Virus record (IMG/VR): IMGVR_UViG_3300042400_000593
Source: a virus
Taxonomy: Duplodnaviria; Heunggongvirae; Uroviricota; Caudoviricetes
Direction: 5' to 3' (one strand)
Length of the DNA stretch: 64,000 bases
Shown here: positions 14,437 through 44,770 of the stretch, in pieces
Numbering within the stretch: the stretch's first letter is position 1
Layout of the letters: each line of letters begins with the position of its first letter
Notes under the pieces: generated by a model
Seen by the model: the letters and a program-made list of their open reading frames with translations, nothing else
What the model was told of the DNA's origin: nothing
Databases searched by the model: none
Made by a program: the position numbers and the translations under genes

Positions 14437-15189
14437 ATGAATCTATTATTTTGTCAATGCTGTAATGCATCTTTTATTCCAAAAGCAGGATCTCTTGGAA
14501 AGTTTTGTTCTTTATCATGCTCGTCTCGGCATAATAACAAACTTAGTACTGAAAAGAAAATTTCTAAATACATGTTAAATCCTCTAGCATGCAACTGTTG
14601 TAATAAATCGTTAGCATATGAAAAACGTAAAAATAAATTTTGTTCTAATCGATGCGCTGCTATAGTTTCTAATAAGGTTGAACGAAAACGTGGACCAACA
14701 CCTAAAGAAAAACTACTATATTCAAAAGTAAAATTTTATTTATGTACACATACTAACAAGTGGTATGTAAATCGAAATCCTAACGGTACTGTGCGTCGTT
14801 CATCGCCATATATTAAATCCGAAAAAGAAAAATATTACGCTGCATCAAGATTTAAATTTAACGTGTATCACTTTCCTAACGAGTTTAATTTGTCTTTAAT
14901 CGAAACTCACGGGTGGTATACGTGCCCAGGTAAAAAACGATCAACCTTCCCTAAAAACTTATTAGGTGTAAGCAGAGATCACATTATATCAGTTAGCTAC
15001 GGATTTGCAAATAATATCGATCCTGCTATTATATCGCATCCTGCTAATTGTAGAATTGTTCTACAATCAGATAATAAGAAAAAACATTCTACTTGTGATA
15101 TAACTTTATCTGAACTATTACAAAAAATTATTATATGGGATCAAAAATACAGTGAGCGACGTACCGGGCTCGAACCGGTCTTGTTCTAA
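14437..15189 (+). CDS. HNH-type homing endonuclease with zinc ribbons
   Basis: Repeated CxxC/FCSxxC motifs, SRDHIIS...HPANC; TATAAATA at 14424-14431; 3' end runs antisense into tRNA-Gly. Confidence 0.75.
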   Translation: MNLLFCQCCNASFIPKAGSLGKFCSLSCSSRHNNKLSTEKKISKYMLNPLACNCCNKSLAYEKRKNKFCSNRCAAIVSNKVERKRGPTPKEKLLYSKVKFYLCTHTNKWYVNRNPNGTVRRSSPYIKSEKEKYYAASRFKFNVYHFPNEFNLSLIETHGWYTCPGKKRSTFPKNLLGVSRDHIISVSYGFANNIDPAIISHPANCRIVLQSDNKKKHSTCDITLSELLQKIIIWDQKYSERRTGLEPVLF

Positions 15190-15228
15190 CTTGGAAGGAT
15201 AGTGCCATACCTACTAGGCGAACGTCGC
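15155..15228 (-). tRNA. tRNA-Gly(UCC), no encoded CCA
   Basis: Acceptor GCGACGT/ACGTCGC, anticodon loop CTTCCAA, T arm ACCGG TTCGAGC CCGGT. Confidence 0.85.
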
Positions 15229-15251
15229 TCACTGTACTCTTTTTCTAAAAT

Positions 15252-15311
15252 AACTGGATGCATTTTAAATTTCATGGAAAGAAAGTTTAAAGTTGCAGTT
15301 AGCATCCAAAA
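15252..15311 (-). ncRNA. Y-RNA-like bulged-stem RNA, copy A (short)
   Basis: GGATGC-TAA-CTGCAAC ... GCATCCAG. Confidence 0.55.
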
Positions 15312-15331
15312 CTGTTGTATGCAAATACTAT

Positions 15332-15386
15332 AACTGAATGCATTAAATTCACCATTGAAAGTAATAATTGCTGTTAGCATTCAAAA
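15332..15386 (-). ncRNA. Y-RNA-like bulged-stem RNA, copy B (short)
   Basis: GAATGC-TAA-CAGCAAT ... GCATTCAG. Confidence 0.55.
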
Positions 15387-15409
15387 ACTATAGTATTCGC
15401 GTACTATGT

Positions 15410-15486
15410 TGGTCGGGATAACACGATTCGAACATGCGACCTGACCGCCCCAAACGGCCCGCTCTACCAAACTGAGCTACATCCCG
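15410..15486 (-). tRNA. tRNA-Pro(UGG)
   Basis: CGGGATGTAGCTCAGTTTGGTAGAGC...TTTGGGG...GTTCGAATC...CCCGACCA. Confidence 0.95.
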
Positions 15487-15574
15487 GTAATTTGTTTAAA
15501 CTGTTGTTTAACTAATGCGTGTATTATACATTGTTTTATGTATTTGTCAACTATTAATTAAACCTTTTTGTATT

Positions 15575-15659
15575 TGGAGCCAGGTAGGAGACTCGAACTC
15601 CTGATGGGTTTCCCCGACGGATTACAAATCCGTTGCAATGGCCACTATGCGAACCTGGC
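15575..15659 (-). tRNA. tRNA with UGU (Thr) anticodon and long variable arm
   Basis: GCCAGGT/ACCTGGC acceptor, ACGGA-TTTGTAA-TCCGT anticodon arm, CGGGGAAACCCA variable arm, CCA end. Confidence 0.85.
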
Positions 15660-15763
15660 AAATATAACTATTACTAAAACACTTGATATTTAGTGCTTTA
15701 GTAATAGCTATCATTTAAAAATGACAACTACTACACTTTCGTTAATGGAGAAAGTTTTCTGTT

Positions 15764-16067
15764 GTTTAATGGTGTGCTTTTACGCTAAAGACCTGTCTGC
15801 GACATCCTAATTAACTCTCGGACATGTTAAGTTTAACTATTAGGAAAAACATCCTTAACATTAGGGGGTACCTCCCTCATCCGTTTAATATAGCAATCAC
15901 TTTAGACTCGTAACAGCCATTAAGGCATATTGCCGGACTCTATATTAACGCAGTTACATACACTTACAGGTTGCTTTCGCACTGCCGTAAGTTTAAGTAT
16001 CACTTTAGCAAAGTTTGCGGGTCACTCTTTAAATGATGGCTGCTTATAAGCCTACATCCCAATAAAC
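15764..16067 (-). ncRNA. Structured RNA containing a 23S rRNA GTPase-associated-centre (H42-H44) mimic split by a 238-nt insertion
   Basis: GGATGTAGGCTTATAAGCAGCCATCATTTAAAGAGTG ... CGTAAAAGCACAC, closed by GTTTATTGG/CCATTAAAC. Confidence 0.7.
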
Positions 16068-16391
16068 TTATGTTAATGCAATCAATCTATCAATGTTTTG
16101 TTCCATTAATAGCTTGATTCTATCTTTATCAAAATTGTTATTTTGTAAACAGTTTTGATGTTGTAATCTAAACAAAGTTTCTTTTGCTTCGTCATATATT
16201 GATAATGCCCATATCTGCGTACCACAAAACCCACTTGCAGCTAACTTGATCATTTGCCATCCGTCACCTTTGATAAACGAATGTTTTCGTTCAAGTTCAG
16301 GACCAACATATTTTCTTAGAAACTCATGTGTATCTGATATTCTATTTTCATAGTCTTCATTATACATTACATTTCCATATATTACTAACAT
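16068..16391 (-). CDS. Hypothetical protein
   Basis: 107-aa ORF; (I)YDEAKETLFRLQH resembles the small-protein family at 27700-28805. Confidence 0.65.
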   Translation of the reverse strand: MLVIYGNVMYNEDYENRISDTHEFLRKYVGPELERKHSFIKGDGWQMIKLAASGFCGTQIWALSIYDEAKETLFRLQHQNCLQNNNFDKDRIKLLMEQNIDRLIALT

Positions 16392-16445
16392 TAGAAACCT
16401 TTGTTTAAATTGTTAAATGGGGTAACTGCCTTTACGGTAGCATCC

Positions 16446-17096
16446 TTATTTGTTATATGTTATTTTTCTACCTTTATACCATCCTTCTGGAATATTAGTA
16501 GTTTTAGGAATGGATTTATTTTCAATTCCGTTTGTAATCCACATTTTACCATATTGAGAATTTTTATTTCCTTTTTGATGAATAGAACTTTTTTCACCAA
16601 TAAGTTTCTTAGTATGTTCAGAATGTGTTTTACCATTAAATGTACCAGACCTACCTTTTAATGAATCTGATATTTTTTTAGATATTAACGCAGCAAAAAC
16701 TGGATCTTCTTTTTTGCGATTTTCAAGAGTAATTTTCCCTCGTGCAAAGTTATCTTTTACATTAGAAGTATATCCATTATTTCCATACAAATTCTTTTTA
16801 TTGTTGTTTATATAATCAAAGCCGCCACGACCGCCTATTTTAATATTATAAGTTCTAGTACTAGCAACAAATGATTCGTTTACTATTTCAGCTTCTTTAT
16901 CATACATTTCTTTTGAATTATTAAAAACATGCAATATTTGTTTACTAAACTTTTCAATACCGTATTTTATTTTAGCTCGATTTAAAATCTTACCTGATCC
17001 CATATAATCATCATTTATGTCTAATGTTTTATGACAACCTATATAGATTTTATTATTAATGATATTTGTAATTTTGTATATTATGTAATAAGTCAT
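16446..17096 (-). CDS. GIY-YIG homing endonuclease (Seg-like) with NUMOD3 motif
   Basis: IIYKITN..NNKIYIG.H...YMGSG; KTHSEHTKKLIG. Confidence 0.9.
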   Translation of the reverse strand: MTYYIIYKITNIINNKIYIGCHKTLDINDDYMGSGKILNRAKIKYGIEKFSKQILHVFNNSKEMYDKEAEIVNESFVASTRTYNIKIGGRGGFDYINNNKKNLYGNNGYTSNVKDNFARGKITLENRKKEDPVFAALISKKISDSLKGRSGTFNGKTHSEHTKKLIGEKSSIHQKGNKNSQYGKMWITNGIENKSIPKTTNIPEGWYKGRKITYNK

Positions 17097-17209
17097 GCAT
17101 TTAGTGTTAGTAAGGTGTTAACACCTTACTAATCCAATTATTCTTTTAGGATAATGATTTAACGTGCGGAACTTTTATAAAGCATCCTAAACCACACAAA
17201 CATACTAAT

Positions 17210-17284
17210 TGGCGTCGCTACGGGGAATTGAACCCCGGTTGCAAGGATGAAAACCTTGTGTCCTAACCACTAGACGATAGCGAC
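17210..17284 (-). tRNA. tRNA-Glu(UUC)
   Basis: GTCGCTA/TAGCGAC acceptor, CAAGG-TTTTCAT-CCTTG, CCA. Confidence 0.95.
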
Positions 17285-17290
17285 ATATAT

Positions 17291-17374
17291 TGGTGGAGAT
17301 CCCTGGATTCGAACCAGGTGCCCAGAGGGCATGGATTTACAGTCCACTGCAGTCGCCAATGCCGCTCGACCTCC
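17291..17374 (-). tRNA. tRNA-Tyr(GUA)
   Basis: GGAGGTC/GATCTCC acceptor, CTGTAAA loop, long variable arm, CCA. Confidence 0.95.
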
Positions 17375-25173: not shown

Positions 25174-26367
25174 ATGAAAATACAAGAAATTATAAGCGAA
25201 GCAATATCAGGTGCTCACTGGATACACGGATTGCACAATGGGTTAAATGATATTTTAGAACAACCGTTAGGACTTACATTTAACTTAGAAACTATAAATG
25301 GATTTAATGCCATTGCAGTATACCTTAAAGATATGTCCGACGGCAGGATATGTAGTTTTTATGAGAAAATGCAACCTAGTGATATTATTTACATGTTAGA
25401 AGAGATAGTAAAGATAGCACATTATGTTATACAGCAGAAATATGCTAAAGTGTGCGCGGATGTAAGTGGAACAAACTTTTCTCATATTCAAATTCTACCT
25501 CAGTCTAATAATCCAGGAGCCCTCGCCTCGGCTGGTTATGACTATGTAACATTCTATGAAACTGATAAGAATGCTTTCCAACATCGAGATATAGATATGC
25601 TAAAAGACTTGTTATATAGTACAGAAGCAATGACTGATGTTAACAGAGGATGGAGTAATGCTGAACAAAAGAATCTATATGTGCCTGTGATAACTGATAT
25701 GTTTCAAATCGAACCTGCATTTAGAAATTTGAAACTAGGTGATTTTAGTTTAGCTGAATTCTTCTTAGACACTAAAAACATAGATACTATGGTTCACGAA
25801 TTAGTACATATTAGACAACACGCACCTCAATCTAGATATAAAACTAAACGAGTATTTGATAAAGATACTAAACAGCACAAATTGGTTACTAAACAAGGCA
25901 CTGAATTTAGAAGTAAAGTAGAGCCAAATCAAGAAAAGTTTTATAATGCAATTAGAGATTTAGATAAGTCGCCTGAAAACTATAAAATATATAGTTCGTC
26001 GTTACAAGAAATACCAGCACATGCGCATGATGCAGCAGTTAGCGTTATACGTCATTTAGATTTTGCATGGGGCGGTTCGGTTGATGAATATGGCAGAGAC
26101 GTGTCACATTTAAAATCTCAAGTAAAAGCACTTAAATTGATTATTGCTAATTTGTCTAATGGACCAACCGCGTTAAAAGATGTTTATGGTCACCCGATTA
26201 AAATTAGAAGATTTGAATATTTCAGTAAGACATTTAATCATCCTAACGATAAAAAGTTATATCCGGTATATAAAAAATTTGTAAAAATAATGAGTCAAGA
26301 ATTAATCAATTATTACAATTATTGGAATGAAAAACTTATTAACCTTAGTAAATCAAATGGTCAATAA
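25174..26367 (+). CDS. HExxH putative metallopeptidase with MKIQEIISE leader
   Basis: MVHELVHIRQ and downstream QEIPAHAHD. Confidence 0.6.
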   Translation: MKIQEIISEAISGAHWIHGLHNGLNDILEQPLGLTFNLETINGFNAIAVYLKDMSDGRICSFYEKMQPSDIIYMLEEIVKIAHYVIQQKYAKVCADVSGTNFSHIQILPQSNNPGALASAGYDYVTFYETDKNAFQHRDIDMLKDLLYSTEAMTDVNRGWSNAEQKNLYVPVITDMFQIEPAFRNLKLGDFSLAEFFLDTKNIDTMVHELVHIRQHAPQSRYKTKRVFDKDTKQHKLVTKQGTEFRSKVEPNQEKFYNAIRDLDKSPENYKIYSSSLQEIPAHAHDAAVSVIRHLDFAWGGSVDEYGRDVSHLKSQVKALKLIIANLSNGPTALKDVYGHPIKIRRFEYFSKTFNHPNDKKLYPVYKKFVKIMSQELINYYNYWNEKLINLSKSNGQ

Positions 26368-26394
26368 AAAAGCTGCCCTAAGGCAGCTTTAGTT

Positions 26395-26740
26395 GTATTT
26401 TGGTTAATAAGGCATACATGCCCCAGAGGGGTAGGTTATTAAGCTACCATGTCAGCTGCTTCCAAAGAGAAGTCAACTGTCATATACTCGAATTTAGATG
26501 CTTTTGCGTCTATAAGTTTTGCGCTGTTTAGGACAGTCACCTCACCTGTTGCCGTCTCCATTATCTCACCAAGTCGAATCCAATTCATCCCCATTATAAA
26601 ACACACTATCACTTCCCATTTGAGGGGCAGGAAGTCTACGGCTGTTGCCCCACTCCGATACCTCTAATGTGTTTTATGGTGGAGATGTGGGGTTTCGAAC
26701 CCCAGTGTTTGATGCCGTCACTTTGAAGGAATTACAACAA
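26395..26740 (-). ncRNA. ssrA: Circularly permuted (two-piece) tmRNA
   Basis: Acceptor piece ...GGGGTTCGAAACCCCACATCTCCACCA (3' end 26677) precedes coding piece GGGGATGAATTGGATTCGAC (5' end 26592); G3-U70 pair; tag ORF 26507-26439. Confidence 0.85.
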
Positions 26741-26901
26741 TAATAAACACACTAAAATATTTAATGTGCTTATTATTGTTAACTTGTGCATATTATAACA
26801 TAAAAATAATATTTGTCAAGTGTTAATGATAAATAAAAATGTAGTTCACGATGCGCTAACATCTAACTACTCTAAACATTTTTAACTTTTAAGGAACAAC
26901 A

Positions 26902-29894: not shown

Positions 29895-30137
29895 ATGAGA
29901 GTAAGTGAGATATTAGAAGGTATTGAGTTAGATGAAGCAAGAATACCTACTAGTAAAGAATTAAAAAGTGCGTTAATAAAGAAAGGATACACACCGAGTG
30001 AAGGTGGAGAACATATGAAGTTTCATGCACCTGATAAATCTCATCATATATCAATGCCTCGCGGGCCAAAACCATTAAGTATTGGCCTTGCAAGGTCTGT
30101 TATGAAAAAAGCTGGAATTACTGACGCTGATTTATAG
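29895..30137 (+). CDS. HicA-like mRNA interferase domain with MRVSEILE leader
   Basis: EL..AL.K.GY...GGEH.KF...ISMP...LSIGLARSV.K.AGI. Confidence 0.7.
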   Translation: MRVSEILEGIELDEARIPTSKELKSALIKKGYTPSEGGEHMKFHAPDKSHHISMPRGPKPLSIGLARSVMKKAGITDADL

Positions 30138-30138
30138 C

Positions 30139-32187
30139 TTACTTTTCGTAAGCTATAAATTCTCCTTGCCACGAATCACCTAAGTCTTGTTGTTTCATAA
30201 ACTCACAACGTTCAATCCACATTTTATAGTACTTGTCCATCTGTCCGCCAAAACTACCTTTCATTGTTTTACAAATAGCAGCAGCATCATCAAATCTTTT
30301 TAGTTTGTATAAAATATGCATCATATCATGTTGATCTTTATCTGCACTGTAGTCGGCACCTTTAGTACGTAATGCAGTATAGATTAAATCTGCAACAGTT
30401 TTACCTTTTGGTTGTAAGTTGTCTAACATTAAGTAGAAGAAATCATCTTTAGTTCTATTATATGTTTCTGCACCTATAATACACAGTACACCATATGCTT
30501 TACAACGTGCTTCTAAACGAGCAGCAGTTGAAACCATATCGCCTAAGATATCATAACTGTGTCTATCAGTAGAACCCATCTCTCCAATAAAGCCAATACC
30601 ACTGTTACAACCCCAACCCATTGCTGCTGGAGGTAAACCTTGAGCTTCCATGATCTTAGTATATTCGTCTACTGCGTCTAACATTTGTAAACCAACTTTA
30701 ACAATAGTACGAGCATGATAGTCGTCATCAATAGGAGCACCGTGTATATGCATAGATGCATCGCCTACGTATTTAATAACCATACCGTTGTTATCCATAA
30801 TTGGTCTACTAATGCTATCCATGTATCCGTTCATGTATTTGCCAAGTCCTGCAACATCATCACCGTAGTGTTCACCAATTGGCGTAAAGCCGCGTAAATC
30901 AGAAAATAGCACCGATACATCTTTACGCACACCACGTTTAATTAGTTCTGGATCTTTTTGTAGCATTTCGACTACTTCTTTAGAGCAGTAACCTGCAAAT
31001 TGTTTTTTGATAGCTAGTTTTTGTGTTAGTTCAGAAACAAACTTAACAGTATAAGCATGAGCATACACAAGGCCAAATCCAGACACAACAAACGTTGCAT
31101 CCAGTAAAATGCTATAATTGGTGAAAACATAGCTAGCAGCATAAGGAATGCCGCCGATAAACATAATAATAGGAATAAAGCCATAACGCCACCTCGTTAA
31201 AAATATAGAACCTATTGCTAATACAATAAATGCTAATAGTTCTGCACCGTCTGCATAGTCTGGTCTAACAATGTTAGTACCAGATACTAGTGTATCTAAT
31301 ACAGCACTTTGAAGTTCATGAGGAAACCGTTCCCCTGTAGCTGTTGCCACTGGGTTGTTGAGTCCTCTTGCGGTAAGACCAACAATAACGATTCGTCCCT
31401 CAAAGGAGTCTGGAAGACTAGTGATTGAATAGCTTGTGGGCTTATGTGACCAGTCAATCCAAATTCTACTGTACGGGTCGGTTGCAATTTTTCCAAACTT
31501 AGGAATTCTGACAGCTTCAACTCCAAGCTCTGAGATTTTAACTTGGAAACTTGGATCTCCACTCGCGACTCGTAAAGTGTCAAGTCCAAGTGACGGGTAT
31601 AACTTTCCTTTTGATGATACAACCATTGGCATTCTTCGTACAACGCCATCGAGTTCTGGGAAAGTGTTAACAATACCAGCACCTGCAGTAACATCGTTAA
31701 GTTGTTTAGTATTTGCTTGTATGTTTTCATAATTTACAGTAAATGGTTGATCTTCATTTCCTATTACACTAACACCTGGGCGAAATGCAATAGTATCTAA
31801 TTTTACAGGTTCGTTAGTTGCGGTCTGCGGTAGTACAACAGGAGAAATTGAAATAACGTTAGCTAAGTCTGCATCTCTTTTAAATCTATCTGCATCTGGC
31901 ATAAAGATATTAAACACTACTAATCCTGCACCTCTAGCATATAAGTCTTCAATTATCTGTGCGTATATGTCGCGAGAGAACGGAAATTGCCCATACTTCT
32001 CTAATGCAGCATCGTCAATGTTTACTGTAGTAACTGATGAGTCTTGTATTGGTTTACTTGTAATTAATGTATCAAAGTATCTTAGTCGCATACTTTCTAC
32101 AAATGACGGATCTGCTATACGTACACCCGCTACTAACATAACTGTTAGTAGCGCAGTCCAGGGGTTTAATAATATTTTTTTAATCAT
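30139..32187 (-). CDS. CHASE2-domain class III adenylate/guanylate cyclase
   Basis: CHASE2 periplasmic domain, three TMs, FSDLRGFT, KYVGDA, GFIGEMG...YDILGDMVSTAARLE. Confidence 0.93.
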   Translation of the reverse strand: MIKKILLNPWTALLTVMLVAGVRIADPSFVESMRLRYFDTLITSKPIQDSSVTTVNIDDAALEKYGQFPFSRDIYAQIIEDLYARGAGLVVFNIFMPDADRFKRDADLANVISISPVVLPQTATNEPVKLDTIAFRPGVSVIGNEDQPFTVNYENIQANTKQLNDVTAGAGIVNTFPELDGVVRRMPMVVSSKGKLYPSLGLDTLRVASGDPSFQVKISELGVEAVRIPKFGKIATDPYSRIWIDWSHKPTSYSITSLPDSFEGRIVIVGLTARGLNNPVATATGERFPHELQSAVLDTLVSGTNIVRPDYADGAELLAFIVLAIGSIFLTRWRYGFIPIIMFIGGIPYAASYVFTNYSILLDATFVVSGFGLVYAHAYTVKFVSELTQKLAIKKQFAGYCSKEVVEMLQKDPELIKRGVRKDVSVLFSDLRGFTPIGEHYGDDVAGLGKYMNGYMDSISRPIMDNNGMVIKYVGDASMHIHGAPIDDDYHARTIVKVGLQMLDAVDEYTKIMEAQGLPPAAMGWGCNSGIGFIGEMGSTDRHSYDILGDMVSTAARLEARCKAYGVLCIIGAETYNRTKDDFFYLMLDNLQPKGKTVADLIYTALRTKGADYSADKDQHDMMHILYKLKRFDDAAAICKTMKGSFGGQMDKYYKMWIERCEFMKQQDLGDSWQGEFIAYEK

Positions 32188-33188
32188 TTTATTTTTGGCA
32201 CCAAGTTGTCTTTAAATATTTCCCAACAATTTTCCCAAGTCCATCTAAATGAACTTATATATACACGGTGTCTATCAAGTTTTAAACATTCTTCAATTGC
32301 TGTTTCTAAGTTAGTATCCATAATACCATTACGACCTTGTTCTATAATATCAATAGGACCTGGCACTGGATATGCAGCAACTGGACAACCTAACGACATT
32401 GCTTCAATTATTACAATACCAAACGTATCAGCTGCACTTGGAAAAACAAATACATCAGCATTAACATAATAATCAGCTAACTCTGATCCTGACTTGTATC
32501 CTACAAATTCTACTAATGGATATTTCTTTTCTAATCGTTTACGATAAGGACCATCTCCTACAATTTGCACATGATACTTTTCGTTTTTAGATAATACACA
32601 TAGATCATCTAATGATTTTTCTTTAGACACTCTGCCTACATATAGCAAAACAGTTTTGTCTGAATCTGCTTTGTGTGCAGTTGGTTGTAGTAATTCTCTA
32701 TCAACACCGCGTGTCCATGGTATAACATTTGGTCTAAACTTATGTTCTTTAAGTTCTTCAACCATTGTTTGTGTAGTAGTTAATACTACAGTTGAATCTT
32801 TATGAAACCAACGCACGTATGCGTATGTAATCCATTTTGGTATTCCGTATATTTTTTTAATAAACTCGGGAAACTTTGTATGATAGGACGTATTATAGTT
32901 AAACTTACGGTTGCGACAATATCCACGAGCTGCTAGCCCAATTGGCCCTTCTGTGCAAATATGAATATAATCTGGATTGATCCTGTCAATCATTTTTCTA
33001 ATACCAGAGGTACGGCTAAGTTTTACTTCTGGATATTTTGGAGCATCTATATAACGGAAATGACTAGGGTTTATAATTTCTATTTCATATCCGTTTAATT
33101 CTGCTTGTTTTTTTATATTAGTGAACGTAGTCACTACGCCGTTAACTTGATCAAACAAGTTGTCGGAAACTATTAAAATTTTTTTCAT
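32184..33188 (-). CDS. GT4 glycosyltransferase, Agt-like glycolipid synthase
   Basis: QVNGVVTT, HICTEGPIG, SYHTKFPE, YVGRVSKEK, DTFGIVIIEAMS. Confidence 0.85.
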   Translation of the reverse strand: MKKILIVSDNLFDQVNGVVTTFTNIKKQAELNGYEIEIINPSHFRYIDAPKYPEVKLSRTSGIRKMIDRINPDYIHICTEGPIGLAARGYCRNRKFNYNTSYHTKFPEFIKKIYGIPKWITYAYVRWFHKDSTVVLTTTQTMVEELKEHKFRPNVIPWTRGVDRELLQPTAHKADSDKTVLLYVGRVSKEKSLDDLCVLSKNEKYHVQIVGDGPYRKRLEKKYPLVEFVGYKSGSELADYYVNADVFVFPSAADTFGIVIIEAMSLGCPVAAYPVPGPIDIIEQGRNGIMDTNLETAIEECLKLDRHRVYISSFRWTWENCWEIFKDNLVPKIK

Positions 33189-33787
33189 TTGATTACCTTA
33201 CAATTTTCAAAGTGCCAACGTTTCATAGAACTGTTTACTCCTGTTGTGTTGCAATGCGGGCAAGAGATATGTTGTCTATTTTGTTGAGAAGCAGACATTT
33301 TAGCTCTAGTTTCTATTGAGTGCGGTTTACCTGTATTATGTGCAGGTTTACCTGTTTTAATGCCTTTATTCCAAGCAGGCTTAGTTGCTTTGATTCCTTT
33401 ATTTGGACCAGGTTTACCTTTCTTTGAATCACGTATTTTAGATTTAGTTTCTTCTGTACACGGTTTTCCTTGAACTGCTCCACTAATACCGTTTTCAGGT
33501 ATTAAGTTAGCCCACTCTTTAGATTCTACTATATTATTTTCTTTTGAAAAGGTTAATGCAAATTCAGTTAACATAGTTTTATTTGTATATGGATCTGAAA
33601 CCCAAATAGTTTCTACAAATTCCCTTCCGTGTGCAGTAATATGATTTTTCCAATGTTTTCCTGATCCTAAATATCTTTTAGGATCTTGAGAAGTAGTTTT
33701 GCCGAAATATTTTAAACCTGTTACTGAATGTTGTTTGATATACAGATAAGTTGGTTTTATATCTATATAAATAATTGTGCTGGGCAT
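33185..33787 (-). CDS. GIY-YIG-type homing endonuclease with NUMOD3
   Basis: YLYIKQH..TGLKYFGKT...YLGSG.HW; KPHSIETRAKMS. Confidence 0.85.
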   Translation of the reverse strand: MPSTIIYIDIKPTYLYIKQHSVTGLKYFGKTTSQDPKRYLGSGKHWKNHITAHGREFVETIWVSDPYTNKTMLTEFALTFSKENNIVESKEWANLIPENGISGAVQGKPCTEETKSKIRDSKKGKPGPNKGIKATKPAWNKGIKTGKPAHNTGKPHSIETRAKMSASQQNRQHISCPHCNTTGVNSSMKRWHFENCKVIK

Positions 33788-34017
33788 TAGTGTCTCCTTA
33801 GATAACATATATAATGTTTAGTGCTAGTGGATGATAGTGCATCGCGACTAGCTTTTTTTATTTAGTAAATTGTTATTATGATTTTGTACACTCGGCAGTA
33901 ACTTTAAACCAATCAAATTTTACTGTATATGTTAGTGATGATGCTACATGCACACACTCTTGTTCTGTAGGAAAAAACAATTTCATTCTTCCAGGCACGT
34001 CTGTTGGATCGTGTATG

Positions 34018-34803
34018 TTAACTACTAGCATTATTAATGTCCACATTACTTTTTATCTCCGTCCAGTATATAATTTCCCATTCACCTGTGTGGTGTTCAA
34101 CTAATGCTGACATAGATTCAACCCAGTCACCATCATTCATTAGTATAATGCTGTTAATCTCTTTAATAAGTGGTGTATGTGTATGTCCACATATTACACC
34201 GTCATAGTTTCTTTTTTTACAGTAGTCAGTTAAGTTAATCTCAAACTGAAAGATAAAATCTACAGCCTTCTTAACTTTATGTTTTAGGTATTTACTTAAA
34301 CTCCAGTATCCGAACCCTAACTTGTGACGCACCCAATTAAAATGATTGTTAAGTCCTAAGATAAAGTCGTAGCCTTTATCACCTAAGAAACCTAACCATG
34401 GTGCTAATCTAGTTATACCGTCAAACAAGTCGCCGTGTGTAACTAAGTAACGCTTTCCATCTACGCCAATATGATCACACTGATTAACAATAGATATCTT
34501 TCCAAATGATATTCCTAATCGTAGCATAGGTCTTAAAAATTCATCATGATTACCTGCTATGTAGATAACTTGAGTGTGTTGTCTTGAAATTTTTAAAAAT
34601 CTACGTATGATATCAGTATGGCTTTGTTTCCATCTTAGTTTATTTTGCTGAACTTTCCAACCATCTATAATGTCACCTACTAAGTATAGTGTTTCGCAAG
34701 TGTTATGTTTAAGGAAGTCGTTAAGTTGTTCTGCTTTACAATCTCGAGTACCTAAGTGTATATCCGAGATAAAGATTGATTTATAAGTTTTAAGTTTTTT
34801 CAT
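34018..34803 (-). CDS. PlcP/LpxH-like metallophosphoesterase (phospholipase C)
   Basis: FISDIHLG, YLVGDIIDGW, YIAGNHDE, HGDLFD, GYWSLSKYLK.KVK.AV, ICGHTH. Confidence 0.85.
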   Translation of the reverse strand: MKKLKTYKSIFISDIHLGTRDCKAEQLNDFLKHNTCETLYLVGDIIDGWKVQQNKLRWKQSHTDIIRRFLKISRQHTQVIYIAGNHDEFLRPMLRLGISFGKISIVNQCDHIGVDGKRYLVTHGDLFDGITRLAPWLGFLGDKGYDFILGLNNHFNWVRHKLGFGYWSLSKYLKHKVKKAVDFIFQFEINLTDYCKKRNYDGVICGHTHTPLIKEINSIILMNDGDWVESMSALVEHHTGEWEIIYWTEIKSNVDINNASS

Positions 34804-34804
34804 A

Positions 34805-35122
34805 TTATTTTTGATGACTCTCTAATGCAGAAATACGCCATTCTAAAACTTTAACTGAACTTTTATTGTCTGCAGAACGTTCAATGTTTTCAGTTTGCAA
34901 GGTTAATAAATCTTGACGTAGTTTTTCACGAGCTAGATCTAATCTGTTATTCATTTAGTGTAATGCATCAGCAGTAACTATAGTTTGATTTTTTGCCTCT
35001 AACATAGTAATGCGTTCATTAGCACTGGACAATGAGTTAATTAAATACACTATACACGAGAATAAGATTGGTATTAGTGCAAACATTATCTTTTCAATAA
35101 GTGCGCCTCTTGAAGTTTCCAT
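34805..35122 (-). pseudogene. Membrane-anchored coiled-coil protein with one in-frame TAA (or two coupled small ORFs)
   Basis: METSRGALIEKIMFALIPIL...DALH*MNNRLDLAREKLRQDL...; TAA at 34955-34957 directly followed by in-frame ATG. Confidence 0.5.
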
Positions 35123-35131
35123 ATTAATTCC

Positions 35132-35440
35132 TTATTTACATTTTAATTTCCTAATAGCCTTAACTAAAAGTTTTTTTTCTTTCCAGCAACTTAATATTGG
35201 CTCGTCTATTCCACAGTGTATAAAATATGCACCGGGACTATCCTTCCATCGTTCTGTACTAGACCAATATTCGTCTTTTAAAAATTCAGTTGGATATTCT
35301 ACCGAAAGTTGACCTAAATCGTATATATTTGGCAATTGCCAATCTGTATGCCCGTATGTTGTTAGACTCTCACAATATTTGATTGCTGCATACCAGCTTA
35401 ATCTTACTTCTGTTTCTTTTGGTGCAAGTATTAAATGCAT
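35132..35440 (-). CDS. DUF1566 (Lcl C-terminal-like) protein
   Basis: LSWYAA..YC..L...GH.DW.LP...L...YWSST. Confidence 0.8.
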   Translation of the reverse strand: MHLILAPKETEVRLSWYAAIKYCESLTTYGHTDWQLPNIYDLGQLSVEYPTEFLKDEYWSSTERWKDSPGAYFIHCGIDEPILSCWKEKKLLVKAIRKLKCK

Positions 35441-35461
35441 TGTTCGCTCCTTCAATAAAAA

Positions 35462-36619
35462 TTATTGCCCTTGTTGAACTTGAATTGGTGCGCATCCTCC
35501 GGCTGTAGCACAATTAAAGTTTATTGAGTAGTACTGTTGAGTAGCACCACTCTGTTGTAGACTTAAGTCTACTGGTTGTCCTGATAAGGTAATATCAGTT
35601 ATATGATTTGCTGCACCTTGTTGTAATACATCAACATGTTTATTACCACCAGATAATTCAATATTAGCATAATAATTTCCACTACCCTTTTGTTGTAAAA
35701 TTAAACTGTTGTTATTATCAGTTATATTTATAAAAGCACCTTTACTAAACCCGGCAGTATATGTATCTTGATCTATACTAAGCAAATTAGAATTGCCATT
35801 TACTGTTAAGTCAATAAAGTTTACTTGTAAGTTATTGGCTGCAGTTTGATTAATAGTAGTAGTGTTAGACGAGCCATTACTGCTGTAATTTACATAATTG
35901 TTGTTAGTACCTTTTTGATCAATTGTAATCTTGTTATTGTTTCCTAACTGATCTATATATACTTGATTGTCAGTAGTTGATCTAGATGTAAAAGCCGTTA
36001 CTTTTGCAGTATTAGCAGGAGCGGCATTAAATGAAGATCCACTGCCACCGCAGCAATATACACTTGGAAACGTAGTCCATGGTAACGTACTTCCTAAGTC
36101 AATGCTAGTAGTAGGATCATTTTGATCGTACAAGAATGTTATTTCTGCAATTTGCATAGAGTTAGCAGCACCTGCGTCTTTAACAATTGGAAACGTTATA
36201 TTATAATACACGTATGCTTCTGTATTGTTAATAGGGTATACTGGACTAACTGCAAGTCTATTATTAGGTAATGCAATAAGTTGAGAAGTTATTAACGTCC
36301 AACCTCCTGATGTATCATTACTTCCAAATAAACTAAAACTAGCAGGATCTCGTTCTGGAGAATCATTTGCTGTAGTAAATTGTACTTGACTAATAACTTT
36401 ACCTTGTGACAGTTTAAGCATAACACCTGCATTAAGTTTATCAAAGTTAAGATACTTAGTTCCGGGATTACCGTCAAACGCATTACTAAAGAACTCACCA
36501 CCTGGACTATTCATACTTGATGGAATATATCCTAACATTAATGGTCTAAGTGGTACATAGTTAGGAACAGCATCTACATTTGAATACCATAACAACAATA
36601 TGAAAAATAAAATTCTCAT
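35462..36619 (-). CDS. Secreted curlin-repeat protein with N-terminal discoidin/CBM-like domain
   Basis: Signal peptide; NAFDGNPGTKYLNF; repeated (I/L)xQxGxxN units. Confidence 0.75.
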   Translation of the reverse strand: MRILFFILLLWYSNVDAVPNYVPLRPLMLGYIPSSMNSPGGEFFSNAFDGNPGTKYLNFDKLNAGVMLKLSQGKVISQVQFTTANDSPERDPASFSLFGSNDTSGGWTLITSQLIALPNNRLAVSPVYPINNTEAYVYYNITFPIVKDAGAANSMQIAEITFLYDQNDPTTSIDLGSTLPWTTFPSVYCCGGSGSSFNAAPANTAKVTAFTSRSTTDNQVYIDQLGNNNKITIDQKGTNNNYVNYSSNGSSNTTTINQTAANNLQVNFIDLTVNGNSNLLSIDQDTYTAGFSKGAFINITDNNNSLILQQKGSGNYYANIELSGGNKHVDVLQQGAANHITDITLSGQPVDLSLQQSGATQQYYSINFNCATAGGCAPIQVQQGQ

Positions 36620-37701
36620 CGTCTTAACACTCCAGTAGTTTGTGTAATACTTATTGTATTACCGCCACTGCTGTCGCCTATTATTGTAGATGCAGCAGTA
36701 TCATTTTGAATAATAGATATAGCAGTATTAGAAGTATACCCTTGTGTTTTTATTTCAGCATAGTGTTCATCTGGGGTTATACGATATGCAGTACCTTTAC
36801 CTTTTTGTGTACCGTCTGCATTAGGTTGTTCCCACATTACACATACATGCGATGTTGGGTCGCAAGGTGCAATAGATTGTATAGTTTCTGCAATCTGTTC
36901 TATTCTAGCAGCAATAGTTTCTTGAGTTTTAGCTACTTGATTTGCTAATCGTCTAGTTGCTTCTTTTTCTAAATCTTCTTGTTCTTCATCTTTCTTTGTT
37001 CTAGCTGCTTGTTTAATTGCGTTAACAATTTCTTTTGGCGCAGAAATGATTAAGTTATTATTGATTTTAGATTCTACCAAACTAATAACTTCCGGAGCAG
37101 TTGGCATTGCAGTTCTACTACTAACATAAGTTGCATGAAACGCTTGATCTAAAGTAACTTCCCCTGCATCATTTGTAACTACAATTTTACCTACTTTACA
37201 AATATTCTCTTGTAGTTCGTATTGTTTAACATCTTTTTCATCTTTACAACTTGGAAGTAGTACAATAAGAGATTGACCAGTTTCATCTACTGTCATAGTA
37301 AAGTCAGTACCACGTACTGCAATTGTAGCAGTGGGAGTTTGTATACCTACTTGCTGTGGATTAGCTTTTGCTATTTGACCACTTGCGTATCTAACAGTAC
37401 CTAATCCAACTTTTAATGCAAGTTTACCTGCATCTGATTGTTTTGGATCGTATACAAAGTCATCTATTACTAATCTACTATTCTCTGTAATTTTAACTTT
37501 TGTTTCATCTTTAAATAAAATGTTACTAACACACCCGCCGGTAATGTATGCATCCATACTTTCTATAGATGCGCCTTTATCACCTGCAAGTTTTTCTTTG
37601 TTACGTTCAATGCTGCATGCAGTGCCTTTAGCGTCTGAAACTGCACCAATTCCTGCATAAGCATTATTAACAACTAATAATAAAAAAACTAAGAACCACA
37701 T
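36616..37701 (-). CDS. FecR-domain protein
   Basis: ITENSRLVID.FVYDP...GTVRYASG...TPTATIAVRGTDF. Confidence 0.85.
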   Translation of the reverse strand: MWFLVFLLLVVNNAYAGIGAVSDAKGTACSIERNKEKLAGDKGASIESMDAYITGGCVSNILFKDETKVKITENSRLVIDDFVYDPKQSDAGKLALKVGLGTVRYASGQIAKANPQQVGIQTPTATIAVRGTDFTMTVDETGQSLIVLLPSCKDEKDVKQYELQENICKVGKIVVTNDAGEVTLDQAFHATYVSSRTAMPTAPEVISLVESKINNNLIISAPKEIVNAIKQAARTKKDEEQEDLEKEATRRLANQVAKTQETIAARIEQIAETIQSIAPCDPTSHVCVMWEQPNADGTQKGKGTAYRITPDEHYAEIKTQGYTSNTAISIIQNDTAASTIIGDSSGGNTISITQTTGVLRR

Positions 37702-37702
37702 A

Positions 37703-38470
37703 TTACCTCGAAACGGCTGTATTTGAATTTACAATACTGCTTGAATTAGTTGACCTTACAGTAATTGTATTATGATCTCCAATTGTACTAATATCTATCA
37801 TAGAATCGTTAGTACCTTGCTGCTGTGTTACAACAGAGTTGTAACTCCCAGTAAAATCTTGTACTAGATGATGCCCGATACCTCCATCGTCTTGTTCGTT
37901 AATGAAACTGTTAAACCCGCCACTTACTGTTGTATCTACTACACCGTTAGTGCTATTTAATCGTGTTGTAACTTCATTGTTACTGCCATTAATATCAATT
38001 GTACTATGTATGCTACCTTTAGTTAAACTTTGTATAACATAGTTTAAATCACCAGTAATTGTTTCAGTAACAACATTAGCATTTACTGGAGTACCAAGTC
38101 CAATGTTAAGTAACGTTTGATTTTGATTACCTTTAATGATACTAGAATATATATTATTTGCTCCGCTAATATTATATTGTGCCCAGTTAGTATCTCCAGT
38201 GTGCGACAATGTTACTTGGTTAGAATTACCCGTAATAGTCGCATAATTTGATGAGCTTGCAGCAGCTGGTACAAAAGCTGTAATAGTGTTACTGGAACTA
38301 TATAACAAAGGATTGTTAAGAGTTGTACCACTAACGTTATTAGCTCCGCCAATCTGATCAATAACGATTGTATTTGCATTTCCGACTTGTTCAATGTATA
38401 CATTGTTTACTCCTGTACTTGCTGCAAACACTGGACTACTTATTAGTAGTAGTAGTATTAGTTGTTTCAT
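37703..38470 (-). CDS. Secreted curlin-repeat (CsgA/CsgB-like) protein
   Basis: Signal peptide; NNVYIEQVGNAN, QxGxxN/GxxN beta-solenoid repeats. Confidence 0.8.
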   Translation of the reverse strand: MKQLILLLLISSPVFAASTGVNNVYIEQVGNANTIVIDQIGGANNVSGTTLNNPLLYSSSNTITAFVPAAASSSNYATITGNSNQVTLSHTGDTNWAQYNISGANNIYSSIIKGNQNQTLLNIGLGTPVNANVVTETITGDLNYVIQSLTKGSIHSTIDINGSNNEVTTRLNSTNGVVDTTVSGGFNSFINEQDDGGIGHHLVQDFTGSYNSVVTQQQGTNDSMIDISTIGDHNTITVRSTNSSSIVNSNTAVSR

Positions 38471-39290
38471 TTTTTAGCTCCTGTGGCGCTTCTTTAAAAG
38501 CCCAATGACCTTTCTTAGCACCTTCTTTAATAGTTTCGACCACAGCGGCTTGAATAGCTTTGTTAGTCGCTTTGTTAATACTTTCATTTATACTTCCGCC
38601 CACTTCTGTTTCTAATGCTTTAGTATCTGAAGAGAACATTCTTAATACACCGACTTTATCCATATAACTTAGTACGGTTTTAGTTACTACAACTGATGTT
38701 AGAATTTCACCAGATGTTACTGATACAATTCTTAAACTTACTGTAACAGTATCGCTTTGATATTGAGTTTCACCACCTATGCCAAATATCCTTACACCTG
38801 CTCCGCCTGTGATTGTATTTGAATCGTAGCCAACAACTGCGCCTTCTGCAATAATTCCAGCAAATGTCATAGCTGGTAATGAAGTAGCATCTTTGCCTTG
38901 GAACTGTTCGCGTGTTTGGCGAATCATTTGACGCTCTTTAACTAGGTTGTCTAAGCCAACGCGTTCTAGTACTACAAACCAACGACTATCACCGACTTCT
39001 TTTAATGACTTGATTAAATAGTTTTCAGCACCTTGAGTAATTGCAGAACTTAAACTAGCAATGTTTGGTATTGATTTGCGTTGTCCAGTTTTATCCGTAA
39101 AACCGTATACTGCAATTGGAATAGGTCCACCTTGCGGCGGAGCTAAATAATTTTCTTCTTTTTTTAAATACGGTGTATTGTCAACGATTGGATCGTCAAA
39201 CTGTTCACCTGTTATAAGTTTTTCAATTGAACTACTTGCTGCACATCCTTGTAGTAGTAGAATAATTGCTAATAATAGTAATTTTTTCAT
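38436..39290 (-). CDS. csgG: Curli secretion channel lipoprotein CsgG
   Basis: Lipobox LQGC, VYGFTDKTGQRK, WFVVLER.GL.NL.KERQ.IR, EGAVVGYDSN..TGGAG. Confidence 0.92.
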   Translation of the reverse strand: MKKLLLLAIILLLQGCAASSSIEKLITGEQFDDPIVDNTPYLKKEENYLAPPQGGPIPIAVYGFTDKTGQRKSIPNIASLSSAITQGAENYLIKSLKEVGDSRWFVVLERVGLDNLVKERQMIRQTREQFQGKDATSLPAMTFAGIIAEGAVVGYDSNTITGGAGVRIFGIGGETQYQSDTVTVSLRIVSVTSGEILTSVVVTKTVLSYMDKVGVLRMFSSDTKALETEVGGSINESINKATNKAIQAAVVETIKEGAKKGHWAFKEAPQELKNETTNTTTTNK

Positions 39291-39297
39291 AGTTACC

Positions 39298-39774
39298 TCA
39301 AAAATAGAAAGTACCGGCCGGTACTTTCATTGTTGTTGTTTGATTTGGATTACTATTACTTGTAATATTGATAATAATTAGTCCATTATCTGTACCTGAT
39401 CCTAATCCCCATGTAACCGTGTTTCCACCTAAGTCTGGAATATTTCCACAAGTTGCACCTGGGATAGTACATGTAGACCCTTCGGCAAACATGCTATCAG
39501 TAAGTTGTTTTGCTAGTTGTGAATAGATCCTTGATTCTAAGTTTGCTAAGAATTTAGCCGCTGGCGTATTAGCTGCTGCTGATGCTGCTTTAGCTGCTAA
39601 TGAATCTGCAAGTGATTTGTTTTTTTCAACACCTTGTTGTTCTAACTGTTGGATAGTTAGAATGTGATTGCTATACCCAATTCCGCTAAATGATGGACTA
39701 TTAAATGAGTGTTGGAGTTCAGCAGAAAATGCTGATGATGATACTAGTAGTAATAATACTAAGATTTTGTTCAC
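39298..39774 (-). CDS. csgF: Curli assembly component CsgF
   Basis: Signal + AEL.H.FNSPSFSG, F..NLESRIYSQLAKQL. Confidence 0.85.
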   Translation of the reverse strand: MNKILVLLLLVSSSAFSAELQHSFNSPSFSGIGYSNHILTIQQLEQQGVEKNKSLADSLAAKAASAAANTPAAKFLANLESRIYSQLAKQLTDSMFAEGSTCTIPGATCGNIPDLGGNTVTWGLGSGTDNGLIIINITSNSNPNQTTTMKVPAGTFYF

Positions 39775-39881
39775 TTCTCTCTCTCTCCTTGATAAAGTTA
39801 CTAACGTATTTACCTACAAAAAGAGTAAAAATAAAGCCAGCAGAAATAATGATAAATATAGAATATGATTAAGGATACAAC

Positions 39882-40673
39882 ATGAGAATTTCTGAATTAC
39901 TTGAAAATGATGGACAATTAGGACTTCCGTTTCAAGATGAACCTACAGATTTACAACCAAGAGTAAAACAAAAACGTGTTAAAAAAGACTACGGTCAGAC
40001 ACCTGAAAGACCAGAATTAAGATTTAGTTTAGAAGATCATCCAGAATTAAAAGCTGCAGCTCAAGCTGTTAAAGCTGGAAAGATGTCTAGAGCAGAATAT
40101 ACAGCATTAGTAAAAAAATATAAACCAGTAAGACCGTATGATTATGTTCCTACACCTGCAAGTGAAAAAGATATGAATCGCGGGTTAGATGCTGATAAAC
40201 GTCATAAGATTAATTCACATATTGCAGACGGTGATGTGGTGCAATTACGATTAGACATCCCTGCGTATAATCATAAAAATGTGTGGGTTCCAACTATTCA
40301 CAATAAAGCTGGAATTGCTATTTCTCATAGAGGAGCAGCAGTTATTAATAATGTAACCATTAAGTTACCGCAAAAAGGTTCAATGAACATTGCAACAGGC
40401 GAAACTAGTAAAGTTCCAATTGCTACTCTAAAAGGTTTTTGGGAAGAAGTATCGCCTGAAGATGCAAAGACAGAAGCAATGGCTGCGTTACATGATAAGA
40501 ATTGGGCTCAGGTAGGTATGGATCCTAAACGACATGCATTCTTCTATGATAGAAAAACTGAAAGACCTATTATTGGTGGATCACGTGCTGTACAAGTAGG
40601 ACCGTTAGTGTTAATTAAAGATCCTATCTATGACGATGATGGTGAATATATTTACGAACGAAATAAAAGATAA
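39882..40673 (+). CDS. Hypothetical protein with MRISELLE leader
   Basis: 263 aa; TAAATA at 39853. Confidence 0.75.
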   Translation: MRISELLENDGQLGLPFQDEPTDLQPRVKQKRVKKDYGQTPERPELRFSLEDHPELKAAAQAVKAGKMSRAEYTALVKKYKPVRPYDYVPTPASEKDMNRGLDADKRHKINSHIADGDVVQLRLDIPAYNHKNVWVPTIHNKAGIAISHRGAAVINNVTIKLPQKGSMNIATGETSKVPIATLKGFWEEVSPEDAKTEAMAALHDKNWAQVGMDPKRHAFFYDRKTERPIIGGSRAVQVGPLVLIKDPIYDDDGEYIYERNKR

Positions 40674-40687
40674 ATAACTTTAACAAC

Positions 40688-40787
40688 TTAGGACCGTCAC
40701 AGTTATCTGTGCCTAAGGCGTCAAGGTTGCCCTACCTAACAGTTTGAGATTCGCTACCTCTTACAACTGTAAACAGGGCTTTTTTTT
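40688..40787 (+). ncRNA. Candidate small structured RNA
   Basis: TAAATA at 40671; nested stems TTAGG/CCTAA, CACAG/CTGTG, GCCCT/AGGGC, ACAGTT/AACTGT; ends in a T-tract. Confidence 0.45.
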
Positions 40788-40789
40788 GA

Positions 40790-41596
40790 CTAGACTAATC
40801 TAGCTCTATAATCGTCTAAAGTTTGATAAATTGATTTTAAGTATCTACGATATGCTTTTTCGTATCCCGGTTCGGCTCTACCTTTAAAATCACTATAAGT
40901 ATGTGATTGTTTTGATATTTCTTTTAAGAATACATTAATAGCAGTGGATTGTTCTTGAGGTGATAGTTTATGAATCTTACTAATTAGATCTGATGCCGCT
41001 TCTTGTGCGTATGCTGCGATTTCGTCAGGTTGTGATTTATATATTTCTCTAGCACGAATCTGTTCTTCTTCACTTTTAAATTCATCTTGTATTAACGCTG
41101 TAAAGAATTTAATTTTATCTCTTTCAACATATCCATGTTTGTATTCGTATCGTTGTCCGTGACTTACTTGTTTAGCATGTGTTACTTCGTGTAAGAATAC
41201 AGAAGTTAAGTGATTAATGATAGTGTTAATATCGTTAGCATCGATATTATCAGTATAATGTTTAAATAATAATTTAATTAAGTTTGCAATTACTTTTGGA
41301 GCAATTGTTATAGTATTAGTATCTTCAATATATTGTCCAGTACCTTGTGCTAACGATTTAAATTGTATAGTAACATCAGTATTTGTTATTTGTTTTGCGT
41401 AGTGTGTTAGAATAGGTTTAATAGAATTAACAAATAACGTATTGTACTTAACCATAAATTGCATATCCATTTTTTGGATAGGAGTTTGAGGTCGGGTATT
41501 AAACACATTCATAACCGCATCATGCAATGCATTATTAATTTCTGGAGCAACGTTTGTTAATGATATACGTTCGTATAATAATTCTCTAATTTTCAT
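40790..41596 (-). CDS. HExxH putative metallopeptidase with MKIRELLYE leader
   Basis: FLHEVTHAKQ...QPDEIAAYA; TATAAATA at about 41617. Confidence 0.65.
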   Translation of the reverse strand: MKIRELLYERISLTNVAPEINNALHDAVMNVFNTRPQTPIQKMDMQFMVKYNTLFVNSIKPILTHYAKQITNTDVTIQFKSLAQGTGQYIEDTNTITIAPKVIANLIKLLFKHYTDNIDANDINTIINHLTSVFLHEVTHAKQVSHGQRYEYKHGYVERDKIKFFTALIQDEFKSEEEQIRAREIYKSQPDEIAAYAQEAASDLISKIHKLSPQEQSTAINVFLKEISKQSHTYSDFKGRAEPGYEKAYRRYLKSIYQTLDDYRARLV

Positions 41597-41626
41597 GTAT
41601 AGTCCTAATTGTATACTATTTATACA

Positions 41627-42247: not shown

Positions 42248-42344
42248 AATTTAATTTTAATGTATAATGTGTTTAATAGATTTAATGTATAGATACTCTT
42301 TGTATCTAATGTCTATATTATACAGTAATTACTTCGATTGTCAA

Positions 42345-43226: not shown

Positions 43227-43252
43227 ACTGTATTTATCAGTATTTGCGCACT

Positions 43253-44460: not shown

Positions 44461-44762
44461 AGATCTTCTTCCATTTTAATTTGTAAAGGATACCCGGCTG
44501 ATCTAGCAAGTGTAGTTGATTCAACTGCCTTAATTTCTGCAATTTCAAAACTATACACACCTGCAATGCCAGATCCAGTTTCGTGTACTTGCATAGTAAT
44601 ATTACCTGCAGAATTAGGATCATGTTTAAACACATCCATTAATAAAGTTACTACAAAGTCAACAGGAGTAACGTCGTCATTAATAAGAATAACTTTCCAA
44701 CGCTTTGGTTCTGAAACCTTAATTCTAACTTTTTCGTCTACTGCTACATCTGTATTTGCCAT
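44457..44762 (-). CDS. clpS: N-end rule adaptor ClpS
   Basis: WKVILINDDVTP.DFVV..L..VF...VHE.G..IAG.YS.EIAE.K. Confidence 0.93.
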   Translation of the reverse strand: MANTDVAVDEKVRIKVSEPKRWKVILINDDVTPVDFVVTLLMDVFKHDPNSAGNITMQVHETGSGIAGVYSFEIAEIKAVESTTLARSAGYPLQIKMEEDL

Positions 44763-44770
44763 TTGGGCTC

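Follow-up and report, generated by a model that had tools for sequence, protein, structure and literature searches.

The 64,000-nt stretch of DNA analysed here (the window) belongs to a phage genome recorded as complete (372,016 bp, with direct terminal repeats), and this genome carries one copy of a 304-nt RNA element that reproduces the GTPase-associated centre (GAC) of 23S rRNA. It belongs to a large family of phage non-coding RNAs, all of them GAC replicas, that has apparently not been described before. A preliminary description, made from the letters of the DNA, had proposed a free-standing, phage-encoded copy of helices H43 and H44 whose fold is under selection, and this is borne out by more than 135 homologues that keep the pairings, including the tertiary pair 1082:1086. 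The window member is one of the larger ones, with a 238-nt lineage-specific, partly structured expansion domain. Judged from sequence, the element probably acts off the ribosome as an imitation of the uL11/GTPase-docking site.

Architecture of the element

The element begins directly after the stop codon (16070-16068, minus strand) of the ORF at 16068-16391, and no ORF of 40 or more amino acids overlaps it on either strand. Its parts and the tRNA gene downstream are as follows.

15764-16067 (-): whole GAC-mimic RNA element, 304 nt; intergenic; full-length match to covariance model R1
16059-16067 (-): closing (H42-like) stem, 5' strand GTTTATTGG, pairing with 15764-15772; G16059 is E. coli G1055
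16024-16058 (-): H43 copy with junction strand (E. coli 1056-1090); counting G1055, 34 of 36 positions are identical to E. coli 23S rRNA; A1061 at 16053, A1067 at 16047, A1088 at 16026
15786-16023 (-): variable insert domain, 238 nt, whose basal stem covaries family-wide; basal stem GACC (16023-16020)/GGTC (15793-15790), then linker TTTA (15789-15786)
15880-15955 (-): 76-nt insert block, identical in all four aligned relatives, including L278; contains the TTAATATAG/CTATATTAA helix
15824-15861 (-): insert hairpin ATGTTAAG (15861-15854)/CTTAACAT (15831-15824); two fully compensatory and two wobble changes in L278
15776-15785 (-): H44 apical hairpin GC-GUAAAA-GC, E. coli 1091-1100; A1095 at 15781
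15772-15785 (-): H44 part GCGTAAAAGCACAC, followed by CATTAAAC, which ends at 15764
15764-15775 (-): A1101-C1104, then closing-stem 3' strand CCATTAAAC (15772-15764)
15575-15659 (-): downstream tRNA, anticodon UGU, long variable arm; 105 nt from the element, same strand

With G1055, the H43 copy forms a 36-nt stretch (16059-16024, minus strand) equivalent to E. coli G1055-U1090. The closing stem GTTTATTGG/CCATTAAAC comprises, in the window, eight Watson-Crick pairs and one U.U. The contiguous H44 hairpin of rRNA (1087-1102) is broken by the insert, leaving its apical two base pairs and loop as the only local part. Folded as a single sequence, the element has an unremarkable energy z-score of -0.79. 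All strings quoted in the preliminary description are present on the minus strand where it had placed them.

Likeness to the GTPase-associated centre of 23S rRNA

The GAC is the site of action of EF-G, EF-Tu, IF2, RF3 and RelA and is targeted by thiopeptide antibiotics and by at least one antibacterial toxin. In a BLAST search covering 5,426 complete E. coli genomes, the 23S rRNA gene was the sole target of the element in every genome, at 34 of 36 identical positions, which agrees with the earlier observation that H43 is matched at all but two positions. U1061A and G1068U are the only differences from E. coli in H43. The 23S reference used in the preliminary description matches the real E. coli and Paenibacillus copies, the latter in locus L004, and the pair replacements it had reported in the H42-like stem (A-U to G-C, and C-G to U-A) are as it said. 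No LSU match was returned in the window by Rfam 15, and there is no further rRNA sequence at the element.

The window retains A1067, C1072 and A1084-A1088. H43 pairs 1057-1059/1079-1081 and 1062-1064/1074-1076 are all formed, and U1082/A1086 are present, as are U1060, C1072, A1084, A1085, G1087 and A1088, bases whose role in tertiary contacts is known from the crystal-structure literature. The lone pair 1082:1086 we take to be a tertiary interaction of the real GAC. In H44, the loop reads GUAAAA in the window against GUAAUA in E. coli, and the 5' strand reads GAGU, which is Firmicutes-like, against GAAA in E. coli; an A at position 1101 makes U1090-A1101 a Watson-Crick pair. A fragment of 58-60 nt comprising the GAC folds autonomously and binds L11, and the U1061A substitution, used for crystallography, stabilises this isolated fragment in Mg2+ (PMC6239185, PMC2719339). 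The same stabilising change is the base present in the window.

A family of phage elements

Cultured phages were searched by blastn and IMG/VR by three pattern scans. The blastn search located an H43-like segment in three cultured jumbo phages with complete genomes, Cronobacter phage GAP32, Pectobacterium phage CBB and Xanthomonas phage XaC1, each time in intergenic sequence without annotation. The three share a common plan, in which the closing stem is followed by H43, an unrelated insert of ~180-200 nt, TTTGGCGT(A/G)ACAGCACAC and the other strand of the stem. The IMG/VR scans gave at least 160 loci with both halves, representing at least 135 distinct elements, with no true rRNA gene among them; from G1055 to C1104, these elements measure 77-419 nt (median 181).

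From 32 short members, with the window and its close relatives left out, we built alignment A2 and covariance model R1. The model recovered the window element at 85.5 bits (E 7e-21; 15763-16068, minus strand) across model positions 1-169 of 169, and GAP32, XaC1 and CBB at 81-86.5 bits (E 1e-19 to 4e-21). It also matched the genuine 23S GAC in L004 (57.7 bits, E 1e-13). In members of the family, the insert is entered after U1090 by way of a basal stem and is followed by a UUU(G/A) linker and GCGUARNAGCACAC; the window fits this signature with GACC/GGTC, TTTA and GCGTAAAAGCACAC.

Among bacterial and archaeal genome contigs, 12 of the 120 matches listed for the 17-nt 3' motif have the H43 half, and the others are mostly chance. 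The genomes or MAGs that carry these 12 belong to Clostridia, Oscillospiraceae, Acidimicrobiales, Neisseriaceae and others, with prophages or phage contigs included in the binning as their presumed source. BLAST of two further family members against cultured phages gave nothing, or rRNA-contaminated records alone, and megablast of window positions 30000-45000 found nothing similar among phages. Rfam 15, at gathering thresholds for the whole window and at E values up to 10 for 15650-16200, returned chance miRNA-type matches alone. No description of such an RNA was found in the searchable literature, including papers on the discovery of bacterial and phage RNA motifs.

Genuine 23S rRNA in phage records looks different, with a contiguous GAC within kilobases of rRNA. 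One such case is L004 (MZ092003.1, Paenibacillus phage Pd_22F, 81476-86388), a 'complete phage genome' with more than 1.6 kb of genuine 23S rRNA; several 'phage' records of 2-7 kb (Staphylococcus, Listeria, Escherichia, Salmonella) are 23S fragments, that is, contaminants.

Covariation and the predicted fold

Closing-stem positions 1-8, counted outward from G1055-C1104, are paired in 63-95 of 97 elements, compared with 37-71 of 97 when strand partners are shuffled, and all four Watson-Crick types occur at each position. Expressed for the family, 8-9 positions of this stem show 80-98% pairing, compared with about 40% after shuffling. Beyond the first two pairs, the sequence of this H42-like stem is unconserved. 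On alignment A2, RNAalifold predicted 23 pairs, 14 of them with double compensatory changes, in the closing stem, both halves of H43, the H44 hairpin and a 4-bp insert basal stem right after U1090, which covaries across the family (A2 columns 46-49/214-217). Within H43, 1057:1081 is AU or CG across the family, and 1058:1080 is UA in 54 elements, GC in 34, AU in 18 and CG in 6; the remaining pairs are near-invariant GC or CG. A compensatory change also occurs at the H44 apical hairpin of relative L008, which reads UC...GA.

The tertiary pair 1082:1086 varies in the same concerted way, being UA (44+12), CG (32+7) or AU (9+3), and is coupled to position 1056, with G accompanying U:A in 44 elements and A accompanying C:G in 32. 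In the first set of elements, all 82 with canonical spacing have G1055, G1059, U1060, G1063, U1066, C1072, C1075, C1079, A1084, A1085, G1087, A1088 and G1089 unvarying. Bases contacted by factors are not all fixed: of 116 elements, 96 have A at 1067 and 17 have G, and A1095 is replaced by G in XaC1. The first search pattern forced A or G at 1061; that A or G is universal there was rejected, as loci found by the 3' motif alone give U in 59 cases, A in 24, G in 16 and C in 5.

The pairing at the base of H44 is ambiguous in these models: RNAalifold pairs the linker UG with A1103/C1102, an rRNA-like arrangement would form G1087-C1102 and U1090-A1101, and all the bases involved are invariant. Covariation in the closing stem, H43, 1082:1086 and the insert basal stem indicates an authentic GAC fold under selection. 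The preliminary description had argued for such selection from the pair changes in one stem, and the covariation test across relatives upholds the argument with compensatory changes in the closing stem, H43 and 1082:1086. The pattern fits RNAs that take up the true compact fold of the GAC and not just its hairpins.

The insert domain

The insert always enters after U1090, a position that is U in 113 of 116 elements, and is followed by the linker UUUG in 78 of these elements, UUUA in 35 (the window among them) and CUUG in 3. Its size ranges from ~27 to ~380 nt, the smallest being a 27-nt hairpin in L013 and L033, and clustering of the insert sequences of 97 elements gives 65 groups with no relation to one another. 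A few motifs recur, namely GGUAAGG in 19 of 97 elements and GUGCGAAA in 10 of 97. A search for inserted copies of other parts of E. coli 23S rRNA found no region enriched. Of the two readings that had been offered for the insert, an expansion domain and an excisable element, the former agrees with a variable domain that occurs family-wide at a fixed site after U1090; because the inserts range from ~27 to ~380 nt and are lineage-specific, we regard the domain as an expansion rather than an intron.

The insert of the window is shared solely with L005, L047 and L270 (98-99% identical) and L278 (86%). The five stems earlier proposed for it are all present as complementary strings, and three of them, GACC/GGTC (family-wide), ATGTTAAG/CTTAACAT and CTTAC/GTAAG (one change in L278), show compensatory changes. 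The TTAATATAG/CTATATTAA helix is invariant among the relatives sharing the insert; CTGCG/CGCAG is disrupted in L270 and L278, and this last stem is not supported. Since some helices carry compensatory changes and CTGCG/CGCAG is broken, the insert is structured in part. The 76-nt invariant block has no Rfam match.

In the ~314-nt inserts of L261, L292, L066 and L085, we found a sarcin-ricin-loop-like hairpin, GUACGAGAGGA or GUACGGGAGGA, at insert positions ~201-238, with a covarying flanking helix and a conserved UUAA after it; the motif search gave five matches against about one in shuffled sequences. The motif is absent from the insert of the window, where a CGAGAG tetraloop at 15820-15815 lacks the bulged-G flanks, and there is no global similarity between this insert and those bearing the motif.

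Two further departures from the common plan were observed. L016, L031, L072 and L094 have a second insertion, a hairpin of 15-30 nt in the H43 3' strand after GCAGCCA (~E. coli 1077/1078). In the member at L055 14199-14348 (minus strand), the insert holds another H44-like segment, TAATAGCTCAC, which has the exact sequence of E. coli 1094-1104.

Genomic context

Five tRNA genes lie within 15154-17374 of the window. Across the family, a tRNA occurs within 5 kb of 89 and within 300 nt of 72 of 135 elements (from the at least 135 in IMG/VR), and in the first set of 97 elements the nearby tRNAs are on the strand of the element in 486 of 487 cases. Roughly one element in four has a tRNA that ends or starts within a few bases of its closing stem and then fills a 'tRNA slot' of the array; the spacing is often like that between two tRNAs. 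Which tRNA lies alongside differs across the family. No terminator-like site was found between the element and the tRNA at 15575-15659 in the window, and the two are probably on the same transcript.

Clustering of neighbouring ORFs by BLASTP over 97 loci yielded no conserved partner protein, the largest cluster covering 6 of 97 loci. By Pfam and PHROGs, the neighbours in the window include genes for a PPIase, a 2OG-Fe(II) oxygenase and a GIY-YIG homing endonuclease, along with a 107-aa ORF that fits no known family, a set that gives no pointer to function. There is no ribosomal-protein gene near the element, and the 372-kb phage genome has no Pfam match to the uL11 N- or C-domain or to uL10.

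Several other features of this region were recorded. The 85-nt tRNA at 15575-15659 (minus strand) is called Thr in spite of its long variable arm, a feature that among bacterial tRNAs typically marks those for Leu, Ser and Tyr and not those for Thr; in L005, too, the element is followed by this tRNA. A long AT-rich inverted repeat with arms of ~18 bp (15664-15710, minus strand) lies between the element and this tRNA and could be a processing site or another small RNA. Between the same tRNA and tRNA-Pro is a perfect 12/12 sigma-70 consensus promoter (TTGACA, 16 nt, TATAAT; 15523-15550, minus strand). The GIY-YIG/NUMOD3 homing endonuclease gene (16446-17096, minus strand; phrog_314, E 6e-42) sits within the tRNA region, as do the seg genes of T4-like phages. 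Further away, a phage tmRNA at 26348-26791 (minus strand) scores 101.9 bits with the permuted-tmRNA model and 90.4 bits with the beta_tmRNA model; ARAGORN likewise calls it permuted, with a 22-residue tag peptide.

Proposed function and alternative readings

We favour, with somewhat better than even confidence, a reading in which the element is a phage GAC replica made as a stable RNA co-transcribed with tRNAs, folded like the GAC and acting off the ribosome as a decoy of the uL11/factor site. The RNA would be transcribed with the tRNAs, and its ends would be released by tRNA-processing enzymes. It would then take the compact GAC tertiary fold and bind the partners of that structure; we infer this fold and uL11 binding because the 58-nt fragment is autonomous and all fold-defining bases are retained. 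Host uL11 is the first candidate because the phage itself lacks a gene for uL11. Other candidate ligands are a translational GTPase, RelA or a toxin aimed at the GAC. The RNA, or an RNA-uL11 particle, would act as an off-ribosome decoy and could pull uL11 from ribosomes, blunting RelA activation. Ribosomes stripped of uL11 would enter a relC-like state without RelA activation. Alternatively, the decoy may sequester a GAC-recognising factor or toxin; the Tre23 toxin, for example, ADP-ribosylates H44 at 1095-1098 (PMC8661411). Binding of uL10, by comparison, is doubtful, given that the stem in the H42 position is generic and has no conserved sequence. The 238-nt insert would be a lineage-specific expansion domain.

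Several considerations bear against a decoy. Stoichiometric action would face competition from tens of thousands of ribosomes, and the insert interrupts the H44 5' strand, so the fit of uL11 or a factor is putative. Further points against it are the ambiguous pairing at the base of H44, the absence of a sarcin-ricin-like motif from the insert of the window, the unremarkable folding energy and the variation at A1067 and A1095. A more specific form of the proposal, to which we give less than even weight, is that an off-ribosome factor-docking replica made by large phages recruits host uL11, in some lineages together with a sarcin-ricin copy, and traps a host protein that recognises the GAC, such as RelA, a translational GTPase or a Tre23-type defence toxin. 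The relatives bearing the sarcin-ricin-like hairpin favour imitation of the whole factor-binding site, a feature that the insert of the window would not share.

In the main rival reading, the weight lies instead on the insert, with the GAC serving as a compact, nuclease-resistant and perhaps uL11-capped handle for a variable functional domain such as a sponge, guide or aptamer. The hypervariability of the inserts would suit such a scaffold, as would the recurrence of GGUAAGG and GUGCGAAA and the invariance of the 76-nt block even in the 86%-identical L278. However, L013 and L033 show that the family can do without a large insert, since they have a 27-nt hairpin alone, and such minimal members argue that the core itself is the function; moreover, the loops contacted by factors are kept base for base (A1067 is present in 96 of the 116 elements, and H44 keeps its GUAA), beyond the needs of a scaffold. 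We therefore consider the scaffold reading unlikely. Excision of the 238 nt, as an intron or as an intervening sequence cut out by RNase III, would leave a contiguous or two-piece GAC of 50-60 nt. Intervening sequences do occur in 23S rRNA, removal of insert and linker restores a contiguous Firmicutes-type H44 (GAGU|GCGUAA), and the 5' junction base is U in nearly all elements. This second reading from the preliminary description is nevertheless not supported, on several counts: no Rfam intron matches at E values up to 10, the last insert base, which in a group I intron has to be G, is A in 35 of 116 elements, the window among them, inserts of 27-60 nt cannot be ribozymes, and the inserts have no common catalytic core. 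We judge it improbable.

A cis-regulatory role, in which a uL11-responsive structure controls the flanking genes in the manner of ribosomal-protein operon leaders, has a known precedent in the imitation of rRNA by mRNA leaders such as the L10 leader, and the window element does begin right after the stop codon of an ORF. Yet the flanks are usually tRNAs with no conserved protein gene among them, no ribosomal-protein gene is nearby and the phage has neither uL11 nor uL10, making this role very improbable. As for an origin in mis-assembled host rRNA reads or in a decaying captured rRNA fragment, some 'phage' records do hold true 23S rRNA (Pd_22F and the 2-7-kb records), but here the rRNA-like part is just ~50 nt and is split by the insert, and enterobacterial phages have a GAGU H44 5' strand where their hosts have GAAA. 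The same architecture in complete cultured-phage genomes and in more than 135 distinct contigs, with compensatory changes, rules out a chimeric assembly of host reads, and we give an artefact or relic virtually no credence. The decoy of the uL11/factor site remains the reading that we put forward.

Relation to known systems

A free-standing, selected copy of a functional rRNA domain is not described in Rfam 15 or the searchable literature. As the GAC is a site for factors, antibiotics and toxins, its imitation by viruses points to an unrecognised contest over the GAC during infection. If true, the factor-trap reading would represent host takeover or counter-defence by imitation of an rRNA domain, for which there is no described precedent. 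With its more than 130 members, the family supplies natural variants of a classic model of RNA folding, among them U1061A/G variants and insertions at two fixed sites, and the proposal is directly testable because GAP32, CBB and XaC1 are cultured.

Compared with the GAC of bacterial 23S rRNA (end of H42, H43 and H44; E. coli 1051-1108), whose 58-60-nt fragment binds uL11 and thiostrepton, the element shares the invariant bases, the covarying pairs and the lone tertiary pair 1082:1086, and its closing helix takes the position of H42. It differs in lying outside any rRNA gene, encoded by a phage beside tRNA genes, in having H44 split after U1090 by a 238-nt domain and UUUA linker, in carrying A at 1101 and in leaving the sequence of the H42-like stem free. 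The L10(L12)4 leader of rplJL (RF00557) is likewise an off-ribosome RNA that imitates the 23S stalk base and, as is expected of the element, binds ribosomal protein; however, the leader acts in cis upstream of ribosomal-protein genes and has a loose likeness to rRNA, whereas the element is a near-exact rRNA copy, stands alone among tRNAs and has no Rfam match.

It is established that phages can encode tRNAs, tmRNA and a few ribosomal proteins. The element shares the compartment, strand and tRNA-like spacing of phage tRNA arrays, and the window also carries the permuted tmRNA; unlike tRNAs and tmRNA, it has no tRNA-like fold and imitates a ribosomal site, not a ribosomal substrate. GOLLD and ROOL are, like the element, structured non-coding RNAs without an assigned function that are often found in phages or prophages near tRNA genes (PMC5737381). 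They show no similarity to the element in sequence or Rfam model, and the rRNA-derived core is the element's alone.
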